Assembly: GCA_964449605.1 (NCBI GenBank)
Contig: CAYUZG010000001.1
Coordinates: forward strand, 1 to 48,279
DNA: 48,279 nucleotides
DNA from: an uncultured Verrucomicrobiota bacterium
Lineage (GTDB): Bacteria > Auribacterota > JABMQX01 > JAFGEW01
Direction of reading: 5' to 3'
The position numbers and the translations under genes are program-made. Position 1 is the first letter of the stretch, and each line of letters opens with the position of its first letter. Below, piece by piece: positions 25,152 through 27,863 of the stretch. Under the pieces are notes generated by a model that was not told the DNA's origin, did not search any database, and saw only the letters and a list, made by a program, of their open reading frames with translations.

Positions 25152-27863
25152 ATGAAACGACGCACGCTGACACTGATCGTTCTTGTCGGGCTCGCGCTCT
25201 ATGTGGCCGGCGTGGCCGCGCAGGAGATCCTGCTCGACGAGAACATCAAGGCGGGCAAGCTGATGTGCTTCCGCGACTTCAGCGACCCGAAGAAGTACTA
25301 CTACCTGGCCGACCAGCCGCACGTCGCGCTCAGGGTGGACAACAACATGCCCGAGTTCGCCTTCATCAAGTACGTCAAGAACGTGCCGCGCGAAGGCGAG
25401 GGCGGCATCGAAGAAGGCGAGGGCGGCGGCGTCGTCACCTGCCTGATGAGCTACGAGGTTTCCGACGAGGACCGCCGCGAAGCTGAGCGCGTGCTCCAGC
25501 AGATGGTGCCGGGCGCCAAGCTCGCCGGGCCGGTCATCTACCGCGCCGGCAGCTACGCGGTGACCACCCCGCTCGCGAGCGGCGAAGGCGAGGACGACGA
25601 GGCGATGAAGTTCATCCACCAGATCTTCGCCACGGGAAAGGCGCCCGTGCTCGAGGGCCACAAGTGCGCCGTCTCGATGCGGCTCACCAAGGAAGGCGCC
25701 ACGCTCCTGTGGGAGAGCTTCAAGATGGGCACCTCGCAGGTGAGCGTCGTCTACGAGATGGAGGTCAAGGGCTACCGCAACCCGTTCGAAGCGACCATCA
25801 TCGCCGACTGGTCCAAGATCACCAAGCACCACCAGCTCCAGGCCGGCATCAAGGCCAAGTGGTTCGGCGCCGATATCGACATGCTCTGGCAGGAGCTGCG
25901 GCAGCAGGGCGCCGTTCAGATCATCCAGAAGGGCGAAGATGAGAACATGGAGAAGATCCTCGCCGAAGCCCAGCGCATCATCATGGCGCGCATCTTCGAT
26001 CGCGAGGAAATGCCCAGCCTGGGCGACCTCGCGAGCCAGGCCGGCGGCCAGAACGCCTACTCGAACCTTGACCGCGCCGTGAGCTACATGCGCGACGAGG
26101 AGGCCCGGCGCCGCAGCCGCCCAAGCGGCACCCGTGAAGGCAGCACGACCACGAGCGAGCTGTACATCAACTGGCCTGGCCCGGAATCCGACTACGCGCG
26201 CGACACGAGCCGCTGGGTCGTCGTCGCCGGCGAGCCATCCGGCGCCGCCGAGGACACGAGCGGCGCCTCCGACCAGCTGGACGCCCAAGAGCAGCGAGAC
26301 TTCGACCGCCACGTCCAGGAGGGCAATGAGCACTGGCGCGCAGGACGCTACCAGCAGGCGGCGGATGCCTACGAGGAGGCGTGGCTGATCGATCCGCGGC
26401 TCGGCGTCGACTACAACATCGCCCAGTGCCACGCCGCCCTCGGCGACTACGGACACGCGTTGACCGAGTTCCAGCAGCTCGAAACGCTCGAGACGGATGC
26501 GGGGCGGCAGTTCCGGCAGCGCTACCCGCAGCTCTTCCTCGACGTCGCCGAGTGCCTGCTCGCGGGTAACCGCGCCCGCGAGGCCGCGACCCGCATCGAA
26601 ACCTTCATGCAGCGCGCACGCGAGGCCGACCTCCCGAACGAGGAACACCACATGACCCGCGCCCGGCAGCTCGCGCAGCAGTGCCGGGACGCCGGCGTCG
26701 AGGTGAATGAGGGGGGCTCCGGCGAGAGCGACCACACCCCCGACACCGCGGCCGCCAGCACGGGCGGCGGCGGGACCGGCGGCGGCGAGACTGGTGGCGG
26801 CGAGACCGGCGGCGGTGGGACCGGCGGCGGTGGGACCGGCGGCGGCAGCGACCTGAGGGAGTCGCCCCTGCTCGGCGGCGCCGGGAGCGCCGAATCGAGG
26901 CGGTCGAGCCTGCGGCGGCCCGGCGAGCAGTCGCCGGCGGCCGAGCGGCGCGACGCGCTCCGCTCGCCTTACGGCGACGAAGCGGGCGGCGACGGCGCCG
27001 CGTCCGGCGGCGCCAGCGAACGCGCCGAGGGCGGCGGCCGCGAACGCGAGCAAGAGCGCACGTCGGGCATCTCGATGCTCGTCTCGTACAAGATGCGGAA
27101 CATCAAGGTGTCGGGCCGCCAGGAGATCACACTGAAGAAGTACACGCTCGACACGCAGCCGTTCGTCTTCACAGCCAACATCAACGGCATGCGCCGCTAC
27201 ATGGACAATCCGGCCGTCTTCAAAGCGGTCAACCTCGACGACCCGGTCTTCAAGCAGCGCGAGGTGCTCGTCTCGCTCGACGGCCAGGACGCTGCCGACT
27301 TCGACAAGTTCATCAACTACGTCACCGTCCAGCTGCGCAAGAAGCACCAGAACGGCGACATCACCTACGACGAGATCAAGATCAACAAGGACAACTTCCA
27401 GCAGAGCGCCAACTACTTCCGCATGGTCTACGGCTGGAAGGGCGACAACGACCGCACCAAGTGGCTCAGCTTCGACTACAAGGTCGTCTGGAGCTTCTTC
27501 GGCGGCGCCGTCTACGAGCAGCCGTGGACGACGACCGACGAGTTCATGATCAACGTCAGCCCGCCGACCAAGTACCGGACGATTCGCTTCGAGGCCGACC
27601 CCCAGATGCTGCGCGACGAGAACGTGCGCCACGTCGATGCGACGATCCGCTACACGCTCTTCGGCACGCCGTGGGCCGAGCGCGTCACGTTGAAGTCGAG
27701 CGACGAGGCGCCGGAGAAGGAAGTCGAGTACGTCCACATGGACGGCGACTACGACTACGAGTACGAACTCTCGTGGCGGCTGCGCGGCAACAAGAAAGTC
27801 GAGACCGGCCCGCTCGCCGGCGACGACACGATCATCTACTGCGACGAGCTGCCCGAGAACTAG
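25152..27863 (+). CDS. secreted protein, long YYYxP-family member with an inserted TPR module and a Gly-rich repeat linker
   Basis: RBS GGGAGGAGCGATC-ATG. Signal peptide MKRRTLTLIVLVGLALYVAGVAA. Motifs: KYYYLADQP (25296-25304), GKAPVLEGHKCAVSMRLTKEGATLLWESFK, NLDDPVFKQREVLVSLDG...INYVTVQLRKK...FDYKVVW. Ends in IIYCDELPEN. The insert at ~26280-26690 resembles module 3 of the TPR paralogues. Confidence 0.8.
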   Translation: MKRRTLTLIVLVGLALYVAGVAAQEILLDENIKAGKLMCFRDFSDPKKYYYLADQPHVALRVDNNMPEFAFIKYVKNVPREGEGGIEEGEGGGVVTCLMSYEVSDEDRREAERVLQQMVPGAKLAGPVIYRAGSYAVTTPLASGEGEDDEAMKFIHQIFATGKAPVLEGHKCAVSMRLTKEGATLLWESFKMGTSQVSVVYEMEVKGYRNPFEATIIADWSKITKHHQLQAGIKAKWFGADIDMLWQELRQQGAVQIIQKGEDENMEKILAEAQRIIMARIFDREEMPSLGDLASQAGGQNAYSNLDRAVSYMRDEEARRRSRPSGTREGSTTTSELYINWPGPESDYARDTSRWVVVAGEPSGAAEDTSGASDQLDAQEQRDFDRHVQEGNEHWRAGRYQQAADAYEEAWLIDPRLGVDYNIAQCHAALGDYGHALTEFQQLETLETDAGRQFRQRYPQLFLDVAECLLAGNRAREAATRIETFMQRAREADLPNEEHHMTRARQLAQQCRDAGVEVNEGGSGESDHTPDTAAASTGGGGTGGGETGGGETGGGGTGGGGTGGGSDLRESPLLGGAGSAESRRSSLRRPGEQSPAAERRDALRSPYGDEAGGDGAASGGASERAEGGGREREQERTSGISMLVSYKMRNIKVSGRQEITLKKYTLDTQPFVFTANINGMRRYMDNPAVFKAVNLDDPVFKQREVLVSLDGQDAADFDKFINYVTVQLRKKHQNGDITYDEIKINKDNFQQSANYFRMVYGWKGDNDRTKWLSFDYKVVWSFFGGAVYEQPWTTTDEFMINVSPPTKYRTIRFEADPQMLRDENVRHVDATIRYTLFGTPWAERVTLKSSDEAPEKEVEYVHMDGDYDYEYELSWRLRGNKKVETGPLAGDDTIIYCDELPEN
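26761..26850 (+). repeat. in-frame tandem 15-bp repeat (~6 units) encoding (T-G-G-G-G/E)n
   Basis: The DNA reads ggcggcggcgggacc / ggcggcggcgagact / ggtggcggcgagacc / ggcggcggtgggacc / ggcggcggtgggacc / ggcggcggc. The protein reads GGGGTGGGETGGGETGGGGTGGGGTGGG. Confidence 0.75.

Follow-up and report, generated by a model that had tools for sequence, protein, structure and literature searches.

Domains built from three tetratricopeptide repeats (TPRs) and a cap helix occur in Sgt2/SGTA, CHIP/STUB1, Hop (TPR1/2A) and RPAP3, where they bind extended peptides in a concave groove. The class II type III secretion system (T3SS) chaperones SycD/LcrH and PcrH also have a three-TPR fold, and those of the SycD type hold oligomerising secreted subunits via a short linear motif, while the secreted TPR proteins BamD/YfiO, PilF/PilW, Tgl and CpoB/YbgF scaffold envelope machines. 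Domains that are free in one genome and part of a composite protein in another are reportedly termed Rosetta-stone domain fusion/fission pairs, in a sense that is said to go back to Marcotte and Enright in 1999. Here we describe such a relationship in a 48,279-nucleotide (nt) stretch of DNA from an uncultured Verrucomicrobiota bacterium (contig CAYUZG010000001.1); the whole stretch is called the window, and positions count from its first letter. Its gene g25152, hereafter D2, encodes a two-module paralogue of the YYYxP family. Within the linker between the two modules, nt 26283-26690 code for a true, folded TPR domain of three repeats, the lineage of which is that of the third module (m3) of the stand-alone, three-module (m1-m2-m3) TPR genes g20899, g22251 and g23694 of the same window. 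The event is of a known kind, fusion or fission of a TPR adaptor domain, set in an unannotated and widespread family.

The initial annotation had proposed that a copy of a TPR-paralogue module was inserted in D2, at 26280-26690. The insert peptide it quoted corresponds to residues 383-511 of g25152 (nt 26298-26684), and the folded domain was found in the place indicated. BLASTP aligned the insert with module 3 of g23694 at 30% identity over 142 amino acids (aa; E 2e-12), with an end at a common LPNEE motif, and also with g22251 (E 2e-10) and with modules 1 and 3 of g20899 (E 6e-5 and 5e-4 respectively); the match to g27885, a generic TPR_12 protein, had an E value of 0.24. For a test of specificity, hidden Markov models (HMMs) of the three modules were built from other genomes only, with no window sequences. 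The insert scored 91.8 bits with the m3 model, 46.5 with m1 and 13.4 with m2, and matched positions 7-132 of the roughly 133 positions of m3. Controls with the m3 model scored far lower: 500 shuffles of the insert gave at most 7.6 bits and the reversed insert 1.1, and the window's generic TPR proteins did not exceed 12. Homology to module 3 is therefore specific and goes beyond generic TPR composition, as had been supposed from alignment by eye. A C-terminal signature of module 3, [LI]P.E..(R)..[WFR]A..L plus a terminal helix, is missing from m1 and m2 and is present in the insert, where it reads ADLPNEEHHMTRARQLAQQC; the same region reads ELPNEERDRRFAQQL, LLPNEIADLRWARELL and ELPAEQANRRYAEGL in stand-alone proteins. 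In a neighbour-joining tree of 39 modules, module 3 and both linker inserts found in the D2 clade (those of the window and of the orthologue P0009) were monophyletic in 84/100 bootstraps. The tree, from which a closest donor had been expected, thus placed the inserts in the module 3 clade but gave them no specific sister group, the best-supported one reaching at most 41/100. Pfam PF07719 (TPR_2) matched residues 387-415 at 30.0 bits (cut-off 27), and matches of D2 to TPR_19, TPR_1 and TPR_16 were below their Pfam cut-offs.

AlphaFold2 (AF2), run on a 50-sequence alignment, modelled residues 378-513 as eight helices with a predicted local distance difference test score (pLDDT) of ~95. The linker 3' of the domain is disordered in the model, as is the linker on its 5' side, with a pLDDT below 50 for residues 522-642. 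Foldseek superposed the TPR piece on the three-TPR domains of Sgt2, CHIP, Hop, RPAP3, SycD and PcrH with template modelling (TM) scores of 0.75-0.80. Compared with the Sgt2, CHIP, Hop and RPAP3 domains, the D2 domain has the same fold and size, three TPRs and a cap helix (Foldseek probability 1.00, root-mean-square deviation ~3 Å, sequence identity 13-21%); unlike them, it is extracytoplasmic, lies within a disordered linker and includes an additional helix with the LPNEE motif. The three-TPR fold is likewise that of SycD/LcrH and PcrH, and holding oligomerising subunits is the role that we propose below for the D2 TPR domain. D2 has a signal peptide, however, whereas SycD is cytoplasmic; the SycD/LcrH model TIGR02552 scored 19.8 bits with D2 and 42.2 with g23694 against a cut-off of 104.8, placing both outside that family, and no T3SS genes were found in the window or the related loci. 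The stand-alone paralogues match the NCBIfam models of BamD, PilF, Tgl and CpoB weakly, in every case well below the cut-offs, and differ from these proteins in their m1-m2-m3 layout and LPNEE tail, which are particular to the window's clade.

The host protein fits the two-module YYYxP family. In alignments, and behind a signal peptide, D2 has the N-module features YYYxP, GGG(I/V)xH, GKAP..G.K and LLWESF and the C-module features NLDDPxFKQRE, YGWKGD and a DELP end. A six-gene operon, A-B-C-D-E-F, is conserved by reciprocal BLAST, and g15277 (D1) and g25152 (D2) are co-orthologues of its single D gene. The other three long paralogues of the window, g13426, g15277 and g18730, have no residues opposite the insert and short linkers where g25152 has ~320 extra residues, in agreement with the initial annotation. 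No family was found for the YYYxP paralogues in Pfam, NCBIfam, PHROGs or PADLOC, and the N-module had no match in Pfam, NCBIfam or PDB. A profile-versus-PDB sequence search of the host family returned noise only; Foldseek searches of PDB and BFVD with full-length models of D2 and of the TPR-less D1 returned TPR matches or generic Ig/FnIII/macroglobulin/pilin sandwiches with a TM score below 0.3; and text searches of the literature found no publication on the family. In fold, the host N- and C-modules come closest to tandem beta-sandwich adhesin and pilin subunits (Bacteroides BACOVA_04077/02677 and the S. pyogenes major pilin, Foldseek probability 0.9-0.99), which are similarly secreted and encoded in multi-paralogue operons of beta-sandwich blocks; TM scores of just 0.2-0.3, a high root-mean-square deviation and the lack of any sequence relationship mean, however, that this likeness is not evidence of membership. 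Since searches of Pfam, NCBIfam and PDB and with Foldseek gave the host family no relative, any handle on its working is useful. The fusion itself is an ordinary evolutionary event that leaves the function of the system unrevealed; its value is as a testable entry point into a large uncharacterised system.

To see how the architecture is distributed, the family was followed into other phyla. Searched with a profile, 1.84 billion cluster representatives yielded 2,289 family members at E <= 1e-3, counted as clusters at 50% identity, and 609 at E <= 1e-30. Scanning GTDB with the NLDDPVFKQRE motif of the C-module as search pattern gave 79 loci across Desulfobacterota, Gammaproteobacteria, Bacteroidota, Acidobacteriota, Eisenbacteria, Armatimonadota, Planctomycetota, Spirochaetales and Verrucomicrobiota, the cultured Bacteroidota among them being Flavivirga, Aquimarina spongiae, Neolewinella aurantiaca, Dawidia and Parachryseolinea. 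Cultured bacteria with the TPR-less system include A. spongiae DSM 22623, N. aurantiaca SSH13, Dawidia cretensis PWU5 and Parachryseolinea silvisoli. These loci, the loci collected earlier and the window were scanned with N-module, C-module and m1/m2/m3 HMMs. Both host modules were present in 264 proteins, 55 of which had a linker of at least 150 aa. An m-type TPR was found in 26 of the 55, in every case in a linker of at least 284 aa (26/26), with its onset ~45-60 residues past the N-module, window included; Pfam adds at least one further protein with a TPR linker (in locus L010). TPR-bearing linkers occur in 23/190 family cluster representatives, and D orthologues with such a linker in at least 24 GTDB species loci, Desulfobacterota and Gammaproteobacteria included. 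In many phyla, the D linker holds one or two TPR modules at equal relative position.

Fused and split architectures, a survey of which the initial annotation had called for, therefore both exist. The stand-alone array is present in the window and in loci L001, L004 and L007, and a composite D(TPR) alone in L005, L006, L011-L019 and others. The L005 and L006 operons read A-B-C-D(TPR)-E-F with no three-module TPR gene, and no such stand-alone gene was found within 10 kb in the distant loci inspected. As in a Rosetta-stone pair, separate and composite genes are thus found across genomes, the module being free in one genome and composite in another, and the partners are operon neighbours. Unlike in a classic pair, fused and split forms occur within one genome, and a third state without the TPR is common. 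The locus survey accordingly resolves three states: loci that lack the TPR, loci in which it is fused into the D linker, and loci with a stand-alone array, whether or not a fused copy accompanies it. Because some systems have no TPR at all, the domain is a recurrent accessory and not a core partner. The linker can also hold other domains: in P0042, P0045 and P0107 a GDSL/SGNH hydrolase domain stands between the N- and C-modules in place of the TPR, which makes the linker a general insertion-tolerant site for accessory domains. L006 carries two TPR-bearing D copies that are 76% identical (10001-13042 and 15988-19086), and fragments with partial N- and C-module matches lie between them, apparently as remnants of a disrupted duplicate operon segment.

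Among close relatives, D2 forms a clade of ten cluster representatives with 57-86% overall identity. D2 of L007 and of the window are 91-94% identical at the nucleotide level in both modules and are separated by a clean in-frame gap at ~26228-26740, which is adjoined on its downstream side by the 15-nt tandem repeat. This repeat lies directly 3' of the TPR module, and its length varies among orthologues. The only microhomology at the indel edges was an 11-nt repeat (10/11) with a spacing of 491 nt, which is out of frame and so probably due to chance. The TPR-less orthologues retain the other parts of the long disordered linker, including the motifs LRxSPLLGG and RPGxRSPAAExRDALRSPY. In TPR-plus and TPR-minus alleles alike, these two motifs are nearly invariant within a fast-evolving linker; in the second of them, RRSSLRRPGEQSPAAERRDALRSPY in D2, the invariant residues are R583, R584, L587, P590, P595, A597, R600, D601, L603, S605, P606 and Y607. 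Both are candidate docking peptides. A second TPR-plus allele is that of the 872-aa orthologue P0009, in which the module occupies the same site as in the window and is followed by the same CRDAGV junction. P0009 is recorded on 6 contigs, and the places shown come from three independent JGI/ENA samples; its sister, P0010, is without the TPR module. A metagenome scan with the D2 alignment gave 11 loci and no further TPR-plus allele, matching the insert peptides to metagenomes gave 187 pattern matches with no relative among them, and the insert by itself, as a protein query, had no match at E <= 1e-3. One related contig, L008, breaks inside the D2 linker.

The stand-alone genes form a small three-module family that is restricted to the window's clade. 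Thirteen stand-alone paralogues, collected in the window and in two loci related to it, align over their full length as m1-m2-m3. Array copy number is 3 genes in the window, 4 in L004 and 6 in L001, and the tally of module-3-type sequences, stand-alone plus fused, is 3+1, 4+0 and 6+1 respectively, counts that follow no consistent rule of compensation between stand-alone gene number and fused module. The g22251/g23694 gap of the window (23594-23694) lacks the 'L4_7264-type' gene that is present at this position in L004 (7264-8544) and in L007 (3-917), the latter locus being near-identical to the window. A comparison of g23694 (23694-25073) with L007:946-2343 revealed a mosaic gene: the first ~600 nt, module 1, are 51-78% identical and the remainder 87-96%, with the break near 24250-24300. 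It follows that modules are exchanged by recombination in the stand-alone array, here in a recent swap between alleles. The signal peptides of the stand-alone TPR proteins are nearer to that of D2 (LALW..G.A.A) than to those of the other paralogues (mean local score 31.3 versus 23.3); this likeness hints, and is suggestive only, that the stand-alone genes may have arisen from a D2 copy.

Judged by its divergence, the module in the D2 linker is old and not a fresh duplicate. The insert is only 25-31% identical in aa sequence to the window's own m3 modules, and the closest stand-alone module, L4_5813 m3, is 40% identical and comes from another genome. A blastn comparison of the insert with the entire window and with seven related loci revealed no DNA donor: nothing in the window exceeded chance, TPR genes included, and the best match outside it was 70 nt at 77%, in L004. 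For calibration, module 3 of g23694 and that of its L007 orthologue share 91% identity. A recent copy-and-paste of the third module of an adjacent gene into g25152 can therefore be regarded as excluded, even though module 3 of g23694 is the best match in the window and has the LPNEE motif in common with the insert; in this respect the proposal of the initial annotation, which read the insert as a copy of a neighbouring module, did not survive. A translocated module 3 of the 'L4_7264-type' gene was also ruled out as the source (identity 33-38%). An assembly chimera that brought TPR sequence into the linker might be suspected from the single contig with the window's allele, from the GC-rich and repetitive character of the region and from the break of the L008 contig at this place. 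It would, however, require two in-frame junctions. The reading frame is intact, the insert's G+C content at third codon positions (GC3) of 0.91 is the same as elsewhere in the gene, no source sequence was found in the window or related loci, and matching architecture occurs in P0009 and in many phyla, so that a mis-join is very unlikely.

Taken as a whole, the explanation that we favour, with modest confidence, is that an old TPR module sits in a permissive D linker, has mostly been lost in the window's clade and serves as a tethered adaptor or chaperone. D2 is a subunit encoded in a widespread operon, so far uncharacterised, of paralogues with signal peptides (A-F), and the D linker is a permissive display site, which may be occupied by a GDSL/SGNH hydrolase, by one or two TPR modules or not at all. 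In the Verrucomicrobiota-like clade of the window, the same TPR type also exists as a recombining, copy-number-variable stand-alone array of 3, 4 or 6 genes, and in-frame deletions in low-complexity DNA rich in repeats would have removed the linker copy from most D2 alleles of that clade. The concave groove of the domain may bind an extended partner peptide, for which a second YYYxP paralogue and the linear motifs conserved within the D linker are candidates; flexibly tethered, the domain would then act in the assembly of an extracytoplasmic hetero-oligomer, and the stand-alone three-module proteins would supply the same activity in trans. In function, the nearest analogues are class II T3SS chaperones and the periplasmic TPR assembly factors BamD, PilF and Tgl, and the D2 domain is likely to be a peptide-binding adaptor or chaperone. 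Physical cooperation of the TPR family with the YYYxP family, the conclusion that the initial annotation had drawn from the fusion, is plausible. The specific homology held, and fusion and fission tie the TPR to the D subunit, but the idea of an insertion is wrong if a recent one is meant, and 8/10 close clusters are without the insert. With regard to origin, we lean slightly towards retention of an old D-linker TPR with recurrent loss. The D-linker TPR is old and widespread, its site and junction are common to the window and P0009, and alleles recombine.

Several observations weigh against this explanation. The module is dispensable, being missing in the 8/10 close D2 orthologue clusters just mentioned, and it is so in whole systems as well, as D proteins with linkers of 200-260 aa had no TPR, nor was there a TPR gene among the neighbours checked. 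The window's own D2 allele is carried by one contig only. The TPR is a promiscuous domain, which, together with the many systems that have no TPR, weakens the argument for physical cooperation. The carboxylate clamp of Hop/CHIP/Sgt2-type domains, formed by Lys/Asn of helix A1, Asn of A2 and Lys/Arg of A3, binds a C-terminal EEVD-like peptide. By eye, and in what we take to be the register of Hop TPR1, clamp residues (Hop K8, N12, K73 and R77) are not conserved in m3 or the inserts apart from the helix-A2 Asn (Y-N-I-A/G), the other positions being variable or hydrophobic. As to the origin, parsimony on the D2 tree prefers two gains (window and P0009) to at least five losses, the two inserts are sisters in just 10/100 bootstraps, and each scores higher against stand-alone m3 than against its counterpart. 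With the m1 and m3 HMMs, distant linker TPRs obtain nearly equal scores, whereas the two D2 inserts are clearly m3-like; a simple retained ancestral module would therefore need unequal rates or conversion.

That the inserts are seldom sisters and stand nearer to stand-alone m3 fits secondary acquisition, or gene conversion, from the stand-alone genes. Here the linker of the D2 ancestor in this clade would have been TPR-less. A segment comprising module 3, in the 3' third of a stand-alone gene and down to the end of the final helix, would later, though long ago, have been inserted or gene-converted into the permissive site, either in a single event or separately in the lineages of the window and of P0009, and would then have diverged. 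The nesting of the inserts in the module 3 radiation and the presence/absence parsimony speak for such a course, as do the demonstrated swapping of modules in the TPR array and the end of each insert at a ...QC[RK] helix end, as in some stand-alone proteins (L1_1785 ...AKCR; L4_7264 ...EQCKND). We nevertheless consider it possible but somewhat doubtful: no donor more than 43% identical was found in any locus or database searched, the linker position matches that in distant phyla without stand-alone TPR genes, and the CRDAGV junction is common to both inserts. The deletion of a module in low-complexity repeats is, moreover, mechanistically easy, and this makes the counting of losses unreliable. 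The low identity of the two inserts (36% between window and P0009, against 65-72% for the N- and C-modules) would seem to favour secondary acquisition, but stand-alone orthologous modules are 33-47% identical between the same lineages, so 36% is what orthology leads one to expect and the argument is weakened. The same figures bear on whether the module is a decaying passenger, a functionless remnant that is being lost as in most relatives. Its absence from most close clusters and the greater divergence of the inserts than of their flanking modules would agree with decay; the open reading frame (ORF) is intact, however, the AF2 model is very confident, the m3 HMM is matched over its full length and stand-alone orthologous modules diverge as fast, which together leave a passenger improbable. 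Retention in a permissive linker remains, by a slight margin, the origin of the domain that we prefer.

That TPRs recur in the linker of the D subunit suggests that this subunit is the interaction hub. The locus is a fusion/fission system that is found in several states among near-identical genomes, and it offers a natural experiment on the gain, loss and spin-off of an accessory adaptor domain. On a more speculative and, to us, rather unlikely reading, the A-F operon would be an undescribed, phylum-spanning, extracytoplasmic multi-paralogue machine with the D linker as its modular docking arm; a TPR that escaped into a recombining array would carry a signature of diversifying selection, and the fused copy would be a surviving intermediate. 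If true, diversifying selection could act, for example, on the way in which partners or targets are recognised at the cell envelope. The paralogues also carry acidic C-terminal tails (g10571 ...DEDEDDE, g12147 ...DENANE, g13426 ...APEEE, g15277 ...EVAE, g18730 ...EVLDD and g25152 DELPEN), which are possible TPR ligands; the clamp residues of the Hop type are not conserved. The coordinates of all features are collected in Table 1.

Table 1. Features of D2, the stand-alone TPR genes and the operon in the window (positions in nt)
Feature	Position	Strand	Basis
D2 (g25152), focal YYYxP-family paralogue (YYYLA), 903 aa	25152..27863	+	ORF, translation, orthologues P0002-P0010
D2 signal peptide, aa 1-23, ...VAGVAAQ|EILLD	25152..25220	+	read from sequence; helix in AF2; conserved in orthologues
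D2 N-module, aa 25-322, mixed alpha/beta, contains YYYLA	25224..26117	+	AF2 pLDDT mostly >80; conserved across 50 sequences
D2 disordered linker 5' of TPR module, aa 323-377	26118..26282	+	pLDDT <50 for residues 323-374
D2 module-3-type TPR domain, aa 378-513: three TPRs, cap helix, LPNEE-containing terminal helix	26283..26690	+	
In-frame indel relative to TPR-less L007 orthologue, approximate extent	26228..26740	+	DNA alignment
15-nt tandem repeat GGCGGCGGCGGGACC, 5.6 copies, encodes (GGGT/GGGE)n	26763..26846	+	
LRESPLLGG, conserved short motif in disordered linker	26853..26879	+	L568, S571, P572 invariant in D2 alignment
RRSSLRRPGEQSPAAERRDALRSPY, conserved short motif in disordered linker	26898..26972	+	
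D2 C-module, aa 645-900, all-beta tandem sandwiches, ends IYCDELPEN	27084..27851	+	AF2 pLDDT ~90
TPR paralogue 1 (g20899), 428 aa; module 3 roughly nt 21781-22176	20899..22185	+	
TPR paralogue 2 (g22251), 447 aa; module 3 roughly nt 23178-23576	22251..23594	+	
TPR paralogue 3 (g23694), 459 aa; module 3 roughly nt 24654-25046; window's best insert match	23694..25073	+	
Gene A (g9518)	9518-10534	+	orthology to L005 and L006
Gene B (g10571, YYYWP)	10571-12094	+	orthology to L005 and L006
Gene C (g12147, FYYVP)	12147-13415	+	orthology to L005 and L006
Gene E (g13426, YYYIP)	13426-15273	+	orthology to L005 and L006; paralogue alignment
Gene D1 (g15277, YYYLP; short linker, without TPR)	15277-17211	+	orthology to L005 and L006; paralogue alignment
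Membrane ORF g17835	17835-18698	+	
Gene F (g18730, YYYLP)	18730-20850	+	orthology to L005 and L006; paralogue alignment
Rest of conserved operon, A to F as a block	9518..20850	+	

The window has a GC content of ~66%, and a run of genes for signal-peptide proteins occupies its plus strand from 9.5 to 30 kb. Housekeeping genes flank the operon (PlsY, M1 peptidase, M24 peptidase, TyrRS and DUF72); those for M24 peptidase, TyrRS and DUF72, downstream, are syntenic in relatives, and the locus is therefore part of the chromosome and not a mobile element. In the window's clade the D subunit is duplicated, with a linker of ~37 aa and no TPR in D1 and a linker of ~320 aa in D2, and distant operons have a single D gene. 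Gene order is A-B-C-E-D1-x-F-TPRs-D2 in the window's clade versus A-B-C-D-E-F in distant operons. Between D1 and F, g17835 is a 287-aa multi-pass membrane ORF that has no homologue in distant operons, and an unrelated 152-aa ORF is found at the matching position in L004. Directly downstream of D2, g27885 (27885-29930) encodes a 681-aa TPR_12/TPR_10 (NPHP3/KLC-like) protein that has a transmembrane segment at its N terminus. This protein has no relationship to the m1-m3 type of module, and a counterpart with 35% identity follows D2 in L001. Two long ORFs on the minus strand, at 18517-22200 (1227 aa) and 25068-27737 (889 aa), lie opposite real genes and are high-GC artefacts, not genes. Gene A has a possible lipobox, VVAC, and residues 73-175 of its product match PHROG 2155, 'virion structural protein' (E 3e-13), a match that was taken as an Ig-like domain.

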